Of a stretch of 28,436 nucleotides of DNA, positions 1 through 28,343 are shown piece by piece. Source of the stretch: Eledone cirrhosa (taxonomy: Eukaryota); contig CAXHJY010001557.1 of assembly GCA_964016885.1 (NCBI GenBank), positions 1 to 28,436 on the forward strand, in the 5' to 3' direction. Below the pieces are notes generated by a model, which made no database searches, was not told the origin of the DNA, and saw nothing but the letters and a program-made list of their open reading frames with translations. The first letter of the stretch is position 1; each line of letters opens with the position of its first letter. The translations under genes and the position numbers were made by a program.

Positions 1-57
1 AAAAGCATATAGCGATATGTGCTTTTACGATTCTCTAGAGAAGCCGGAAGATAGGTA

Positions 58-102
58 AATATTGCTGATGAGTTGTAACAACAACGAAACTAGTTCAATA
101 TT
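58..102 (+). ncRNA. Type I hammerhead ribozyme, first of 19 copies (one per unit)
   Basis: Stem I AATATTG(58-64)/CAATATT(96-102); core CTGATGA 65-71; stem II GTTGT/ACAAC with AACA loop 72-85; GAAA 86-89; palindromic stem III AACTAGTT; GUU triplet 93-95, predicted cut after 95. Stem I extends imperfectly to 30-125. Confidence 0.92.
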
Positions 103-3100
103 CCTTGTCTGGCTTTCTGGAGAATAGAGGAAAGGTGTTTCCTCAAAAACCAGTATGACTCTAAAAACCGGTTTGTCTGTGTGTTTACATACAGAATAGC
201 TGGCCACTCACAGTAAAGTGATCAGTGAAAAAAAACTTGGTACATCTACATATGTATACGTGTGTGTATTCATATACATACTAGTATTTCAGTATACATA
301 TATGGATGTACATCTTTGACTTAATTGTTTGAGCGTCAGTCATACAAAAGTGAGTTACAAACGAAACGAAATTTAATTTCGTTTCGTTATTTGTTTTTAT
401 CGTCTCCGTTGAACCGGTACTTACTCACACTCTATGCAAGTTGGTCTGCCCACTACTAATTTTCATAGAAAAAGCATATAGCGATATGTGCTTTTACGAT
501 TCTCTAGAGAAGCCGGAAGATAGGTAAATATTGCTGATGAGTTGTAACAACAACGAAACTAGTTCAATATTCCTTGTCTGGCTTTCTGGAGAATAGAGGA
601 AAGGTGTTTCCTCAAAAACCAGTATGACTCTAAAAACCGGTTTGTCTGTGTGTTTACATACAGAATAGCTGGCCACTCACAGTAAAGTGATCAGTGAAAA
701 AAAACTTGGTACATCTACATATGTATACGTGTGTGTATTCATATACATACTAGTATTTCAGTATACATATATGGATGTACATCTTTGACTTAATTGTTTG
801 AGCGTCAGTCATACAAAAGTGAGTTACAAACGAAACGAAATTTAATTTCGTTTCGTTATTTGTTTTTATCGTCTCCGTTGAACCGGTACTTACTCACACT
901 CTATGCAAGTTGGTCTGCCCACTACTAATTTTCATAGAAAAAGCATATAGCGATATGTGCTTTTACGATTCTCTAGAGAAGCCGGAAGATAGGTAAATAT
1001 TGCTGATGAGTTGTAACAACAACGAAACTAGTTCAATATTCCTTGTCTGGCTTTCTGGAGAATAGAGGAAAGGTGTTTCCTCAAAAACCAGTATGACTCT
1101 AAAAACCGGTTTGTCTGTGTGTTTACATACAGAATAGCTGGCCACTCACAGTAAAGTGATCAGTGAAAAAAAACTTGGTACATCTACATATGTATACGTG
1201 TGTGTATTCATATACATACTAGTATTTCAGTATACATATATGGATGTACATCTTTGACTTAATTGTTTGAGCGTCAGTCATACAAAAGTGAGTTACAAAC
1301 GAAACGAAATTTAATTTCGTTTCGTTATTTGTTTTTATCGTCTCCGTTGAACCGGTACTTACTCACACTCTATGCAAGTTGGTCTGCCCACTACTAATTT
1401 TCATAGAAAAAGCATATAGCGATATGTGCTTTTACGATTCTCTAGAGAAGCCGGAAGATAGGTAAATATTGCTGATGAGTTGTAACAACAACGAAACTAG
1501 TTCAATATTCCTTGTCTGGCTTTCTGGAGAATAGAGGAAAGGTGTTTCCTCAAAAACCAGTATGACTCTAAAAACCGGTTTGTCTGTGTGTTTACATACA
1601 GAATAGCTGGCCACTCACAGTAAAGTGATCAGTGAAAAAAAAACTTGGTACATCTACATATGTATACGTGTGTGTATTCATATACATACTAGTATTTCAG
1701 TATACATATATGGATGTACATCTTTGACTTAATTGTTTGAGCGTCAGTCATACAAAAGTGAGTTACAAACGAAACGAAATTTAATTTCGTTTCGTTATTT
1801 GTTTTTATCGTCTCCGTTGAACCGGTACTTACTCACACTCTATGCAAGTTGGTCTGCCCACTACTAATTTTCATAGAAAAAGCATATAGCGATATGTGCT
1901 TTTACGATTCTCTAGAGAAGCCGGAAGATAGGTAAATATTGCTGATGAGTTGTAACAACAACGAAACTAGTTCAATATTCCTTGTCTGGCTTTCTGGAGA
2001 ATAGAGGAAAGGTGTTTCCTCAAAAACCAGTATGACTCTAAAAACCGGTTTGTCTGTGTGTTTACATACAGAATAGCTGGCCACTCACAGTAAAGTGATC
2101 AGTGAAAAAAAACTTGGTACATCTACATATGTATACGTGTGTGTATTCATATACATACTAGTATTTCAGTATACATATATGGATGTACATCTTTGACTTA
2201 ATTGTTTGAGCGTCAGTCATACAAAAGTGAGTTACAAACGAAACGAAATTTAATTTCGTTTCGTTATTTGTTTTTATCGTCTCCGTTGAACCGGTACTTA
2301 CTCACACTCTATGCAAGTTGGTCTGCCCACTACTAATTTTCATAGAAAAAGCATATAGCGATATGTGCTTTTACGATTCTCTAGAGAAGCGGAAGATAGG
2401 TAAATATTGCTGATGAGTTGTAACAACAACGAAACTAGTTCAATATTCCTTGTCTGGCTTTCTGGAGAATAGAGGAAAGGTGTTTCCTCAAAAACCAGTA
2501 TGACTCTAAAAACCGGTTTGTCTGTGTGTTTACATACAGAATAGCTGGCCACTCACAGTAAAGTGATCAGTGAAAAAAAACTTGGTACATCTACATATGT
2601 ATACGTGTGTGTATTCATATACATACTAGTATTTCAGTATACATATATGGATGTACATCTTTGACTTAATTGTTTGAGCGTCAGTCATACAAAAGTGAGT
2701 TACAAACGAAACGAAATTTAATTTCGTTTCGTTATTTGTTTTTATCGTCTCCGTTGAACCGGTACTTACTCACACTCTATGCAAGTTGGTCTGCCCACTA
2801 CTAATTTTCATAGAAAAAGCATATAGCGATATGTGCTTTTACGATTCTCTAGAGAAGCCGGAAGATAGGTAAATATTGCTGATGAGTTGTAACAACAACG
2901 AAACTAGTTCAATATTCCTTGTCTGGCTTTCTGGAGAATAGAGGAAAGGTGTTTCCTCAAAAACCAGTATGACTCTAAAAACCGGTTTGTCTGTGTGTTT
3001 ACATACAGAATAGCTGGCCACTCACAGTAAAGTGATCAGTGAAAAAAAACTTGGTACATCTACATATGTATACGTGTGTGTATTCATATACATACTAGTA

Positions 3101-6100
3101 TTTCAGTATACATATATGGATGTACATCTTTGACTTAATTGTTTGAGCGTCAGTCATACAAAAGTGAGTTACAAACGAAACGAAATTTAATTTCGTTTCG
3201 TTATTTGTTTTTATCGTCTCCGTTGAACCGGTACTTACTCACACTCTATGCAAGTTGGTCTGCCCACTACTAATTTTCATAGAAAAAGCATATAGCGATA
3301 TGTGCTTTTACGATTCTCTAGAGAAGCCGGAAGATAGGTAAATATTGCTGATGAGTTGTAACAACAACGAAACTAGTTCAATATTCCTTGTCTGGCTTTC
3401 TGGAGAATAGAGGAAAGGTGTTTCCTCAAAAACCAGTATGACTCTAAAAACCGGTTTGTCTGTGTGTTTACATACAGAATAGCTGGCCACTCACAGTAAA
3501 GTGATCAGTGAAAAAAAACTTGGTACATCTACATATGTATACGTGTGTGTATTCATATACATACTAGTATTTCAGTATACATATATGGATGTACATCTTT
3601 GACTTAATTGTTTGAGCGTCAGTCATACAAAAGTGAGTTACAAACGAAACGAAATTTAATTTCGTTTCGTTATTTGTTTTTATCGTCTCCGTTGAACCGG
3701 TACTTACTCACACTCTATGCAAGTTGGTCTGCCCACTACTAATTTTCATAGAAAAAGCATATAGCGATATGTGCTTTTACGATTCTCTAGAGAAGCCGGA
3801 AGATAGGTAAATATTGCTGATGAGTTGTAACAACAACGAAACTAGTTCAATATTCCTTGTCTGGCTTTCTGGAGAATAGAGGAAAGGTGTTTCCTCAAAA
3901 ACCAGTATGACTCTAAAAACCGGTTTGTCTGTGTGTTTACATACAGAATAGCTGGCCACTCACAGTAAAGTGATCAGTGAAAAAAAACTTGGTACATCTA
4001 CATATGTATACGTGTGTGTATTCATATACATACTAGTATTTCAGTATACATATATGGATGTACATCTTTGACTTAATTGTTTGAGCGTCAGTCATACAAA
4101 AGTGAGTTACAAACGAAACGAAATTTAATTTCGTTTCGTTATTTGTTTTTATCGTCTCCGTTGAACCGGTACTTACTCACACTCTATGCAAGTTGGTCTG
4201 CCCACTACTAATTTTCATAGAAAAAGCATATAGCGATATGTGCTTTTACGATTCTCTAGAGAAGCCGGAAGATAGGTAAATATTGCTGATGAGTTGTAAC
4301 AACAACGAAACTAGTTCAATATTCCTTGTCTGGCTTTCTGGAGAATAGAGGAAAGGTGTTTCCTCAAAAACCAGTATGACTCTAAAAACCGGTTTGTCTG
4401 TGTGTTTACATACAGAATAGCTGGCCACTCACAGTAAAGTGATCAGTGAAAAAAAACTTGGTACATCTACATATGTATACGTGTGTGTATTCATATACAT
4501 ACTAGTATTTCAGTATACATATATGGATGTACATCTTTGACTTAATTGTTTGAGCGTCAGTCATACAAAAGTGAGTTACAAACGAAACGAAATTTAATTT
4601 CGTTTCGTTATTTGTTTTTATCGTCTCCGTTGAACCGGTACTTACTCACACTCTATGCAAGTTGGTCTGCCCACTACTAATTTTCATAGAAAAAGCATAT
4701 AGCGATATGTGCTTTTACGATTCTCTAGAGAAGCCGGAAGATAGGTAAATATTGCTGATGAGTTGTAACAACAACGAAACTAGTTCAATATTCCTTGTCT
4801 GGCTTTCTGGAGAATAGAGGAAAGGTGTTTCCTCAAAAACCAGTATGACTCTAAAAACCGGTTTGTCTGTGTGTTTACATACAGAATAGCTGGCCACTCA
4901 CAGTAAAGTGATCAGTGAAAAAAAACTTGGTACATCTACATATGTATACGTGTGTGTATTCATATACATACTAGTATTTCAGTATACATATATGGATGTA
5001 CATCTTTGACTTAATTGTTTGAGCGTCAGTCATACAAAAGTGAGTTACAAACGAAACGAAATTTAATTTCGTTTCGTTATTTGTTTTTATCGTCTCCGTT
5101 GAACCGGTACTTACTCACACTCTATGCAAGTTGGTCTGCCCACTACTAATTTTCATAGAAAAAGCATATAGCGATATGTGCTTTTACGATTCTCTAGAGA
5201 AGCCGGAAGATAGGTAAATATTGCTGATGAGTTGTAACAACAACGAAACTAGTTCAATATTCCTTGTCTGGCTTTCTGGAGAATAGAGGAAAGGTGTTTC
5301 CTCAAAAACCAGTATGACTCTAAAAACCGGTTTGTCTGTGTGTTTACATACAGAATAGCTGGCCACTCACAGTAAAGTGATCAGTGAAAAAAAACTTGGT
5401 ACATCTACATATGTATACGTGTGTGTATTCATATACATACTAGTATTTCAGTATACATATATGGATGTACATCTTTGACTTAATTGTTTGAGCGTCAGTC
5501 ATACAAAAGTGAGTTACAAACGAAACGAAATTTAATTTCGTTTCGTTATTTGTTTTTATCGTCTCCGTTGAACCGGTACTTACTCACACTCTATGCAAGT
5601 TGGTCTGCCCACTACTAATTTTCATAGAAAAAGCATATAGCGATATGTGCTTTTACGATTCTCTAGAGAAGCCGGAAGATAGGTAAATATTGCTGATGAG
5701 TTGTAACAACAACGAAACTAGTTCAATATTCCTTGTCTGGCTTTCTGGAGAATAGAGGAAAGGTGTTTCCTCAAAACCAGTATGACTCTAAAAACCGGTT
5801 TGTCTGTGTGTTTACATACAGAATAGCTGGCCACTCACAGTAAAGTGATCAGTGAAAAAAAACTTGGTACATCTACATATGTATACGTGTGTGTATTCAT
5901 ATACATACTAGTATTTCAGTATACATATATGGATGTACATCTTTGACTTAATTGTTTGAGCGTCAGTCATACAAAAGTGAGTTACAAACGAAACGAAATT
6001 TAATTTCGTTTCGTTATTTGTTTTTATCGTCTCCGTTGAACCGGTACTTACTCACACTCTATGCAAGTTGGTCTGCCCACTACTAATTTTCATAGAAAAA

Positions 6101-8498
6101 GCATATAGCGATATGTGCTTTTACGATTCTCTAGAGAAGCCGGAAGATAGGTAAATATTGCTGATGAGTTGTAACAACAACGAAACTAGTTCAATATTCC
6201 TTGTCTGGCTTTCTGGAGAATAGAGGAAAGGTGTTTCCTCAAAAACCAGTATGACTCTAAAAACCGGTTTGTCTGTGTGTTTACATACAGAATAGCTGGC
6301 CACTCACAGTAAAGTGATCAGTGAAAAAAAACTTGGTACATCTACATATGTATACGTGTGTGTATTCATATACATACTAGTATTTCAGTATACATATATG
6401 GATGTACATCTTTGACTTAATTGTTTGAGCGTCAGTCATACAAAAGTGAGTTACAAACGAAACGAAATTTAATTTCGTTTCGTTATTTGTTTTTATCGTC
6501 TCCGTTGAACCGGTACTTACTCACACTCTATGCAAGTTGGTCTGCCCACTACTAATTTTCATAGAAAAAGCATATAGCGATATGTGCTTTTACGATTCTC
6601 TAGAGAAGCCGGAAGATAGGTAAATATTGCTGATGAGTTGTAACAACAACGAAACTAGTTCAATATTCCTTGTCTGGCTTTCTGGAGAATAGAGGAAAGG
6701 TGTTTCCTCAAAAACCAGTATGACTCTAAAAACCGGTTTGTCTGTGTGTTTACATACAGAATAGCTGGCCACTCACAGTAAAGTGATCAGTGAAAAAAAA
6801 CTTGGTACATCTACATATGTATACGTGTGTGTATTCATATACATACTAGTATTTCAGTATACATATATGGATGTACATCTTTGACTTAATTGTTTGAGCG
6901 TCAGTCATACAAAAGTGAGTTACAAACGAAACGAAATTTAATTTCGTTTCGTTATTTGTTTTTATCGTCTCCGTTGAACCGGTACTTACTCACACTCTAT
7001 GCAAGTTGGTCTGCCCACTACTAATTTTCATAGAAAAAGCATATAGCGATATGTGCTTTTACGATTCTCTAGAGAAGCCGGAAGATAGGTAAATATTGCT
7101 GATGAGTTGTAACAACAACGAAACTAGTTCAATATTCCTTGTCTGGCTTTCTGGAGAATAGAGGAAAGGTGTTTCCTCAAAAACCAGTATGACTCTAAAA
7201 ACCGGTTTGTCTGTGTGTTTACATACAGAATAGCTGGCCACTCACAGTAAAGTGATCAGTGAAAAAAAACTTGGTACATCTACATATGTATACGTGTGTG
7301 TATTCATATACATACTAGTATTTCAGTATACATATATGGATGTACATCTTTGACTTAATTGTTTGAGCGTCAGTCATACAAAAGTGAGTTACAAACGAAA
7401 CGAAATTTAATTTCGTTTCGTTATTTGTTTTTATCGTCTCCGTTGAACCGGTACTTACTCACACTCTATGCAAGTTGGTCTGCCCACTACTAATTTTCAT
7501 AGAAAAAGCATATAGCGATATGTGCTTTTACGATTCTCTAGAGAAGCCGGAAGATAGGTAAATATTGCTGATGAGTTGTAACAACAACGAAACTAGTTCA
7601 ATATTCCTTGTCTGGCTTTCTGGAGAATAGAGGAAAGGTGTTTCCTCAAAAACCAGTATGACTCTAAAAACCGGTTTGTCTGTGTGTTTACATACAGAAT
7701 AGCTGGCCACTCACAGTAAAGTGATCAGTGAAAAAAAACTTGGTACATCTACATATGTATACGTGTGTGTATTCATATACATACTAGTATTTCAGTATAC
7801 ATATATGGATGTACATCTTTGACTTAATTGTTTGAGCGTCAGTCATACAAAAGTGAGTTACAAACGAAACGAAATTTAATTTCGTTTCGTTATTTGTTTT
7901 TATCGTCTCCGTTGAACCGGTACTTACTCACACTCTATGCAAGTTGGTCTGCCCACTACTAATTTTCATAGAAAAAGCATATAGCGATATGTGCTTTTAC
8001 GATTCTCTAGAGAAGCCGGAAGATAGGTAAATATTGCTGATGAGTTGTAACAACAACGAAACTAGTTCAATATTCCTTGTCTGGCTTTCTGGAGAATAGA
8101 GGAAAGGTGTTTCCTCAAAAACCAGTATGACTCTAAAAACCGGTTTGTCTGTGTGTTTACATACAGAATAGCTGGCCACTCACAGTAAAGTGATCAGTGA
8201 AAAAAAACTTGGTACATCTACATATGTATACGTGTGTGTATTCATATACATACTAGTATTTCAGTATACATATATGGATGTACATCTTTGACTTAATTGT
8301 TTGAGCGTCAGTCATACAAAAGTGAGTTACAAACGAAACGAAATTTAATTTCGTTTCGTTATTTGTTTTTATCGTCTCCGTTGAACCGGTACTTACTCAC
8401 ACTCTATGCAAGTTGGTCTGCCCACTACTAATTTTCATAGAAAAAGCATATAGCGATATGTGCTTTTACGATTCTCTAGAGAAGCCGGAAGATAGGTA

Positions 8499-8543
8499 AA
8501 TATTGCTGATGAGTTGTAACAACAACGAAACTAGTTCAATATT
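8499..8543 (+). ncRNA. Type I hammerhead ribozyme, last (19th) copy of the array
   Basis: Identical to 58-102; followed by 234 nt of unit sequence after the cut site, then the TA tract. Confidence 0.9.
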
Positions 8544-8779
8544 CCTTGTCTGGCTTTCTGGAGAATAGAGGAAAGGTGTTTCCTCAAAAACCAGTATGAC
8601 TCTAAAAACCGGTTTGTCTGTGTGTTTACATACAGAATAGCTGGCCACTCACAGTAAAGTGATCAGTGAAAAAAAACTTGGTACATCTACATATGTATAC
8701 GTGTGTGTATTCATATACATACTAGTATTTCAGTATACATATATGGATGTACATCTTTGACTTAATTGTTATATATATA

Positions 8780-8841
<62 letters not shown>

Positions 8842-8859
8842 TATATATATATATATATA

Positions 8860-8981
8860 TAGGAACCAGTAAGACCCCAGTAAGGGGCCTTACTGGTTCC
8901 TATTACCCACTCTACTACCCCAAGTATTGAGTACTTTGGTGCGTTATGGTCCACCTGGTTCCTTACCACATTTCCTTCGTT
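8860..8981 (+). mobile_element. Short PLE/retrozyme-like element (family A), 3' tail with a 5' fold-back hairpin
   Basis: Inverted repeat 8860-8878/8884-8902. Body is homologous to the reverse complement of 15571-15667. Flanked by TA tracts that each contain TATAAGGTTATA. Confidence 0.6.
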
Positions 8982-9187
8982 ATATATATATAAGGTTATA
9001 CCAACATATATACCTGTCTGGGTGTGCATATATATATTATTAGGTTAACATTTTTCAAGCGTAAAATGAAGTAAATATTGTGAATGGTTTTAAAAACAAA
9101 ACATGAACGAGGAGTTTTATACGTGAATAAAACAGCAGACTATTTTGTATGTAACATGATGTATTAGATTGCATCATTTTTCATTTC

Positions 9188-11225: not shown

Positions 11226-11398
11226 TTAATATAGAAAAGCTTCAGTAGAAATCATCAGAAAGGTTTTCCCGATGATGTCTTCTACCGAATGAAACAGTTC
11301 TAGTCCTGTAGAAGCCTTTCTATATTAAATATTTACTCTTTGCCATGTATTGAGTACCTTATTTACTGTGGTTACCCCCGATTCAACGCGGGTTAAAC
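11226..11398 (+). mobile_element. Short HHR-bearing element (family B) with a partly deleted inverted arm; degenerate HHR at 11258-11320
   Basis: Stem I GAAAGGTTTTC/GAAGCCTTTC, core CCGATGA, GAAA-CAG-ttctagtc-CTG-TA. Upstream AGTAGAAATCATCAG is an inverted copy with a CTGATGA core. Homologous to 20765-20952. Confidence 0.65.
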
Positions 11399-14858: not shown

Positions 14859-14936
14859 ATTACCTCATTACCAGAGATTTCCCGAATGAGGCGAATACGA
14901 AATAAACGACTTCATTCGTTCGTCAGACGAGGCAAT
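14859..14936 (-). ncRNA. Type I hammerhead ribozyme
   Basis: Minus strand: ATTGCCTCGT-CTGACGA-a CGAATGA...TCATTCG g-GAAA-TC tct GG-TA-ATGAGGTAAT. 10-bp stem I (2 G-U), 7-bp stem II, GUA triplet. Confidence 0.85.
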
Positions 14937-16450: not shown

Positions 16451-16521
16451 TATTTTATCTGATGAAAAGGCAGATATCATCTCATGATGATATTTGTTTT
16501 TGAAATGCGCATAATAAAATA
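16451..16521 (+). ncRNA. Type I hammerhead ribozyme (family D), intact, inside a dispersed repeat at 16390-16555
   Basis: Perfect stem I TATTTTAT/ATAAAATA; CTGATGA; 16-bp stem II (3 G-U) with TCAT loop; GAAA; palindromic ATGCGCAT stem III; AUA triplet. Confidence 0.9.
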
Positions 16522-28137: not shown

Positions 28138-28343
28138 TAGAAGTGGTTACACAACAGTTAGTTCACCATACCGAGAACAATTGTTTCACCTTCGCGGATC
28201 TTCAGCTCGGGATGCTGAAGATCGCTAAGGTGAAACAGTTGTTTCTCGGTATGGCGAACTAACTGTTGTGTAACCACTTCTACCTAACTCGTCCCTTGGA
28301 CTGAGTGCTCTACCACTACGAATATTACCTTCCAGTGTTCCAC

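Follow-up and report, generated by a model that had tools for sequence, protein, structure and literature searches.

The first 8,770 nucleotides of the stretch of Eledone cirrhosa DNA analysed here (contig CAXHJY010001557.1, 28,436 nucleotides, called the window throughout) form a tandem array of a 469-bp unit, and insertions of this repeat in the genome were observed to have two fixed ends, each marked by an element of the predicted RNA fold of the unit. Judged by its sequence, the repeat is a non-LTR (long terminal repeat) retrozyme, a non-coding tandem repeat that carries a hammerhead motif. Retrozymes, self-paired predicted circles and the hypothesis that Penelope-like elements (PLEs) mobilise them are already known from published accounts (PMC7229834; 10.64898/2026.07.22.740005); what is new is the insertion pattern, in which a conserved fold is tied to two start sites and to a PLE footprint. 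We consider it probable, at roughly two chances in three, that a PLE protein primes twice on one retrozyme circle in (TA)n DNA and rolls both ways around it, with the branched RNA serving as the circular template.

A total of 33 loci of the window family (family A), the window included, were scored among 601 candidate regions. Twenty-four of these loci are inverted: a block on the - strand precedes one on the + strand, which brings the sense-5' ends together in the middle. The other nine run one way. One inverted locus contains an assembly gap. Each of the 23 complete inverted arrays has one of its outer ends within 321-330 of the unit and its other outer end within 396-403, and these ends almost always abut (AT)n. 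Of the one-way arrays, six terminate at 326-329 and three at 400. Exact junctions with (AT)n were counted genome-wide 2,015 times for position 400 and 1,066 times for position 326 (0 and 3 in the reversed-pattern controls), which puts the insertions of family A in (TA)n at no fewer than 2,015. Since both flanks of the insertions consist of (TA)n, a target-site duplication is unreadable. Contigs of sequencing run X1, which may be the assembled sample, also have loose ends that lead into (AT)n at 326 and 400.

A second sample comprised 60 stretches over the first 61 listed 400-junctions, selected by that junction alone. The far end was an inverted arm ending at 326-330 in 34 of them and a short inverted stub starting at 323-330 in seven; it lay beyond the fetched stretch in four, and position 400 was found at both ends in none of the 60. 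Two of the 60 stretches are duplicates; L130 and L131, 17.7 kb apart, share the same insertion and flanks, which makes them a duplicate of either segmental or assembly origin. Of the 146 sense-3' ends counted at 91 loci, 140 are within 326-330 or 396-403, with the 400 class inflated by selection. The sense-5' ends (n=148, same loci) are spread over the whole unit with no pile-up at the predicted cleavage site (6 of 148 in 90-102, p 0.23), and the inner junctions are at scattered positions with short overlaps.

The same arrangement was found in two further families. In sister family B (30 loci), the homologous sites 301-304 and 354-361 bound 8 of 11 inverted arrays; two of the others are cut short and one is complex. 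The unrelated family C (316 bp) follows the two-site rule in 11 of the 13 inverted arrays that have both ends in view. The length of the one-sided tail differs between the families: 70-74 nt (A), about 56-59 nt (B) and about 26-30 nt (C). Family C occurs at L076 (435-2422) and at L070, L077-L082, L085 and L092, where some arrays are broken at one fixed position by another insert. Its hammerhead-like motif has U and A at core positions that are usually C3 and G8.

The head-to-head order and the short inner overlaps resemble the products of L1 twin priming, and fragments of LINE-like (long interspersed nuclear element) reverse transcriptase are present near some loci. Insertion of the RNA by a LINE-type enzyme through ordinary twin priming, a process that likewise yields 5' inversions, is nevertheless a very improbable source of the arrays: the two outer ends are fixed, with one of each kind in every case, no poly(A) end is present, neither start lies at the RNA's 3' end, and the PLEs of this genome are themselves bounded by two fixed ends in (TA)n.

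Three very young PLE-like families were identified (L112, 1955-4297; L105, 2-1495; L137, 4064-5536), often as inverted pairs. Their frames are intact, typically 777, 1217 and 821 aa, with 89, 92 and 87 scored copies at 97-100% identity. All three end in (TA)n, and two of them, the 777-aa and the 821-aa family, evidently do so at two fixed positions. Hammerhead-like cores were noticed in the 3' region of two of the three. The only overlap of families A and B with these PLE loci consists of nested insertions in the flanking (TA)n.

Insertions of PLEs are described as often including a 5'-truncated copy in inverted orientation and, on one end, a tail of 30-40 bp, and some clades are biased towards (TA)n (PMC8557442). 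A purified PLE protein nicks AT-rich DNA on both strands and extends both; it is predicted to form a dimer, and its reverse transcriptase initiates at two internal RNA positions separated by the length of the tail (PMC11167929). The window family resembles the endonuclease-containing (EN+) PLEs of these two papers in the inverted copy, the one-end tail, the two internal starts, the AT-rich or (TA)n target and a hammerhead with a short palindromic stem III. It differs from PLEs in that it lacks an open reading frame (ORF) for reverse transcriptase or GIY-YIG, its arms are built as multimers of a single short unit, and it has no sequence likeness to the three PLE families checked. The insertions display two features expected of a PLE-mobilised element: an inverted 5'-truncated arm with a one-sided tail between two fixed 3' ends, and an AT-rich or (TA)n target. 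PLE-type priming is proposed because the arrays bear these marks: the inverted copy, the one-sided tail, the two fixed starts and (TA)n.

The sequence of events that we propose is as follows. An array would be transcribed, and adjacent hammerheads would pair through the palindromic stem III and cut between U95 and C96. A host ligase would then close the 469-nt circle. A PLE protein supplied in trans would bind the fold and nick both strands of a (TA)n tract. One nick would prime at 326-330, in the loop of a small hairpin, and the other at 400, in the U-rich strand past a perfect stem; the footprint at both places is observed and the priming chemistry is our reconstruction. Both complementary DNAs would circle for a variable number of turns and be joined at their growing ends, and the product would be an inverted array, arranged head-to-head, in which one side has a tail of 70-74 nt. 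With less assurance, we also lean towards the fuller statement that the arrays preserve the outcome of bidirectional rolling-circle reverse transcription that a PLE drives on a ribozyme circle, where one enzyme dimer primes both nicked strands of (TA)n on that single circle at two structure-defined sites.

The type I hammerhead motif lies at 58-102 on the + strand and matches Rfam HH9 with an E value of 5.8e-8 and 37.7 bits, which is under the gathering score of 52; at gathering thresholds no Rfam match was found in window 1-3000. It is composed of stem I (58-64/96-102), the core CUGAUGA (65-71), stem II (72-76/81-85), GAAA (86-89) and stem III ACU/AGU (89-94), a palindrome without a loop. Cleavage is predicted after U95, and the triplet is GUU in the window, GUC in older subfamilies and GUA in family B. 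A scan of both strands at relaxed Rfam threshold confined the hammerhead match to the + strand; the microRNA and sraA matches that appeared at relaxed thresholds were rejected as chance matches to low-complexity hairpins. Stems I and II are free to form in the self-paired RNA predicted in silico, and stem III is predicted to be unable to form within a single monomer. A loop-less palindromic stem III of this type is thought to act as a dimer (PMC6765202).

These features bear on the main rival, in which a PLE uses the same two sites on an uncut linear multimer, with the hammerhead slow, protein-dependent or otherwise employed, and no circle is required. It finds support in the loop-less stem III and the GUU triplet of the window, in the slow cleavage of PLE hammerheads even as dimers (PMC6765202) and in the anole PLE, whose substrate in vitro is unprocessed RNA (PMC11167929); the scattered 5' ends suit a linear multimer as well as a circle. 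We still consider this rival possible rather than likely. Across families A, B and B2 (a variant of B) the hammerhead core is conserved and stems I and II covary, young insertions hold at least 18 identical copies though a linear template would be expected to shorten in each round, and circular RNAs of related retrozymes build up in coral, mussel and axolotl (PMC7229834).

The arrays are nearly uniform internally. We counted 26 locus-private variants that are fixed in all copies of their own array, 12 of which span both arms (11 loci), and two variants limited to one arm. As an example, A42 of the window is present in 19 of 19 array copies, where G is found in 249 of 268 aligned copies. This uniformity fits one monomer circle copied repeatedly both ways. 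Among the singletons of the family A alignment, counted on the RNA strand, A>G changes outnumber T>C changes by 20 to 4 (p 0.0008), or 12 to 2 without L139 528-992; C>T and G>A occur 5 and 6 times, and single-copy changes within arrays are unbiased (17 vs 21). The excess of A>G may come from A-to-I editing of the template RNA before reverse transcription.

The first-pass annotation of this DNA had described almost the whole monomer as a chain of hairpins resembling a viroid-type branched RNA. Folding was compared with 150 dinucleotide shuffles in each of four tests (linear and circular, both strands). The minimum free energy of the + strand is -154.7 kcal/mol as a linear molecule (z -9.9) and -152.0 as a circle (z -8.9), and that of the - strand is -123.5 (z -5.1) and -118.3 (z -5.4); none of the 150 shuffles reached any of these values. 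The + strand is far below its shuffles (z about -9) and the - strand less so (about -5), an outcome in line with the annotation, and 67% of the monomer bases are paired. Eight of the ten claimed hairpins hold by their mean pair probabilities in the whole monomer. The layout is only partly as described, since the hairpins are largely real and the plain chain is not: the predicted RNA is branched, with a multiloop closed by a long-range helix. The likeness to viroids is one of fold only, the actual element being a retrozyme encoded in genomic DNA with a hammerhead on one strand.

All elements of the predicted fold are given on the + strand. The 11-bp hairpin at 1-26 (mean pair probability 0.97) has the loop GCGA in the window; this loop (12-15), which had been read as a GNRA tetraloop, is not conserved, with G12 in 3 of 32 aligned monomers and mostly ACGA in its place. 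An extended stem I at 30-125 (0.90) carries the hammerhead together with an unpaired U56-A57 within a GGUA that is kept in A, B and B2, and this U56-A57 may dock to loop II. A 7-bp hairpin follows at 127-144 (0.98), where two pairs show double-sided changes. The long-range helix, missed by the first-pass annotation, is formed by 153-160 with 337-344; it closes the central multiloop over four hairpins and is compensated in B and B2. Within it are a G-U-rich hairpin at 168-203 (0.99), whose UUUA loop is kept in A, B and B2, a weak hairpin at 205-227 (0.64) whose register varies among relatives, and a long AU-rich hairpin at 240-311 (0.86) that is microsatellite-like (TA/TG). The hairpin claimed at 317-342 has a pair probability of 0.00 and is replaced by a small hairpin at about 314/320-333 and by the long-range helix. 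This small hairpin (320-333) is the site-1 hairpin: insertions end at 326-330, in or beside its loop, which we take as the putative first start of reverse transcription. The domain at 350-428 (0.80) contains a perfect 13-bp stem at 360-388 (0.94) and a U-rich strand at 389-400, where insertions end at 400, the putative second start. Finally, a 14-bp hairpin at 431-469 (0.96) is kept in family B. A hairpin chain alone is an expected feature of a retrozyme, and self-paired retrozyme RNAs are already in print (PMC7229834).

The asymmetry between the strands is carried by G-U pairs, since the two strands fold equally once these are forbidden (-113.2 vs -112.6). The gap between the strands is 31 kcal, of which about 7 is compositional (shuffle means -100.8 vs -93.6). 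The + strand is more stable in 32 of 32 family A and 7 of 7 family B monomers, which are related rows, and all five single mismatches between strand-symmetric pairs are G-U on the + strand. Region 1-235, which leaves out the microsatellite-like hairpin, has z -7.0 on the + strand and -3.7 on the - strand. The earlier proposal of RNA-level structure in the polarity of the hammerhead is supported by the z-scores, the G-U-dependent asymmetry and the compensatory changes. Region 312-469 taken alone shows no asymmetry, folding to -36.5 on either strand. That symmetric region, the well-folding - strand (z about -5), the microsatellite-like 240-311 and a 9:9 count in the symmetric-pair substitution test (given below) are what would be expected of DNA-level palindromes in an AT-rich satellite spread by unequal crossover or fold-back replication. 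Such an origin is already disfavoured and we regard it as hardly credible, as the energy gap hinges on G-U pairs that account for all five of the single mismatches, the complete hammerhead motif is on the + strand only, and the dispersed insertions, which number in the thousands, have their ends in (TA)n at two fixed positions.

Covariation was sought among diverged repeat copies within this same genome. The family A alignment consists of 32 monomers (86-100% identical, one per locus, window included) drawn from 68 loci with a full monomer, most of the near-identical young copies being left out. RNAalifold gave 148 pairs on this alignment, five of them with double-sided changes, among which is pair 73/84 of hammerhead stem II. 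When the window structure was placed on family A, 98.1% of the cells could pair, which was matched by none of 500 shuffles. On the internal branches of the family A tree, 30 of 33 pair changes stay canonical with no transversion-type breaks, compared with 23 of 55 at the tips (p 2.5e-6), in a test whose pairs were derived from the same alignment, which favours its result.

Sister family B (428-433 bp, 2,550 candidate regions) matches A at about 70% identity along part of its length, and variant B2 measures 454-468 bp; examples of the two are at L167 1270-1700 and L295 997-1450. RNAalifold recovered only part of the helices on a mixed A+B alignment, and the families were folded separately because this alignment was misaligned. 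B (z -9.3) and B2 (z -6.7) share the helix order of A. In both, base changes have left pairing intact in the long-range helix, in stems I and II, in the UUUA-loop stem and in the site-1 hairpin, and the pairs of the long-range helix change together between the families; each helix of the family B copy that was folded contains one or two private mismatches. The compensatory changes in relatives that the first-pass annotation had called for are therefore present across diverged subfamilies and the sister family of the same genome, which supports, at the sequence level, that the branched fold has been kept.

Several observations weigh against priming by a PLE on a circle of this fold. In 15 of the 60 stretches of the second sample there is no inverted site-1 end and the far end is something else. 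No autonomous PLE that shares sequence with A or B was found in the three PLE-like families (90 loci), and a variant-hammerhead pattern gave 662 matches, the first 30 of which are all A- or B-like non-coding repeats with no PLE partner. The family A tail of 70-74 nt exceeds the 30-40 bp described for PLEs. PLE insertion in vitro needed no hammerhead cleavage (PMC11167929), and 8 of 9 predicted Xenopus retrozyme dimers were uncleaved in vitro (10.64898/2026.07.22.740005). The array-wide private variants could also come from a homogeneous source array outside the 91 loci sampled of more than 2,000. Within family A, three pairs of the window structure have double changes compared with 2.4 in shuffles (212 of 500 doing as well). 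Furthermore, the direction of substitution, G-U versus A-C, is 16:2 with the RNAalifold pairs, which are biased toward G-U, and 9:9 with strand-symmetric pairs, a set that was predicted without G-U on both strands and includes forced shifted registers.

Compared with the animal non-LTR retrozymes (PMC7229834; 10.64898/2026.07.22.740005), the window family shares a tandem repeat of a few hundred bases, a type I hammerhead per unit, low GC content, no ORF, a highly self-paired predicted RNA and PLEs in the same genome. Unlike the retrozymes described there, it is head-to-head inverted, targets (TA)n and has two fixed ends. The word "inverted" is absent from the main text of PMC7229834 and occurs in the text of the 2026 preprint only within a reference title, and "tail" is absent from the latter. 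The literature searched, which included few subscription papers, and the texts of these two papers gave no earlier account of retrozyme arrays that are inverted and end at two fixed positions. The loop-less palindromic stem III is as in PLE and newt hammerheads, and the window family is like newt satellite 2 and the axolotl retrozymes in having a weak palindromic helix III thought to need dimer cleavage, with a different sequence and length (PMC7229834).

Hammerhead viroids of the Avsunviroidae type and viroid-like satellite RNAs have in common with the window family its size, the branched multi-hairpin fold, the hammerhead and presumed processing from multimer to monomer. Unlike hammerhead viroids, the window family resides in host DNA in thousands of copies, carries a hammerhead on one strand only, has its ribozyme stems free in the predicted fold and gives no sign of RNA-to-RNA replication.

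PLEs have been proposed as mobilisers of retrozymes from their co-occurrence (PMC7229834); in Xenopus, the similarity of terminal repeats suggests a PLE link, and the mechanism of mobilisation is said to remain uncharacterised (10.64898/2026.07.22.740005). A PLE footprint at the insertion junctions of three families, with the two start nucleotides named, makes the question of mobilisation testable. The origin of the inverted copies and tails of PLEs has been called undefined (PMC8557442), and the same junction data bear on how they form. If bidirectional rolling-circle copying is true, the arrays would be direct genomic evidence that PLEs mobilise animal retrozymes and would account for the inverted-copy-plus-tail structure of PLEs. 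The PLE recognition signal would then shrink to a conserved fold of about 280 nt (153-428), which could be grafted onto any RNA circle.

The array in the window (1-8770, + strand) holds 18.7 copies of the unit that are 99% alike, and 19 near-identical unit starts were counted in it. Its left end is missing because the window starts at the first base of its contig, in a genome of 3.0 Gb. Its right end corresponds to monomer position 329 (site 1) and abuts a (TA)n target tract at 8771-8861. Positions 1-469 represent one monomer in the frame of the first-pass annotation, and the predicted self-cleaved unit is 96-564. The unit has a GC content of 35%, and a 22-mer of it occurs in 6,503 exact read-through copies genome-wide (0 in the reversed-pattern control). 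The longest ATG-initiated ORF in the repeat multimer is 19 aa on the + strand and 23 aa on the - strand, and an ORF scan of the multimer found no reverse transcriptase and GIY-YIG ORF of an autonomous PLE. No LTRs were seen in the arrays examined, in which no separate search for a primer-binding site or polypurine tract was made.

Near-identical unit sequence was noticed at low depth (about 10-90) in runs X4, X5 and X6, which are labelled as three other organisms, compared with more than 100,000 in run X1; relatedness, contamination or mixed samples may each explain these matches. Beyond the array, a short repeat with a strong hairpin lies between TA tracts at window 8862-8990; it is matched by 30-34 fetched loci and is probably the end of another TA-targeting element. 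More motifs like the hammerhead core occur in dispersed repeats of the window at 11269, 11923 and 16459 (+ strand), at 14926, 18106, 21823 and 22771 (- strand) and at 28205/28215. A likeness to the 3' end of the 821-aa PLE family was seen both for the motif at 16459 and for the segment 12150-12280.
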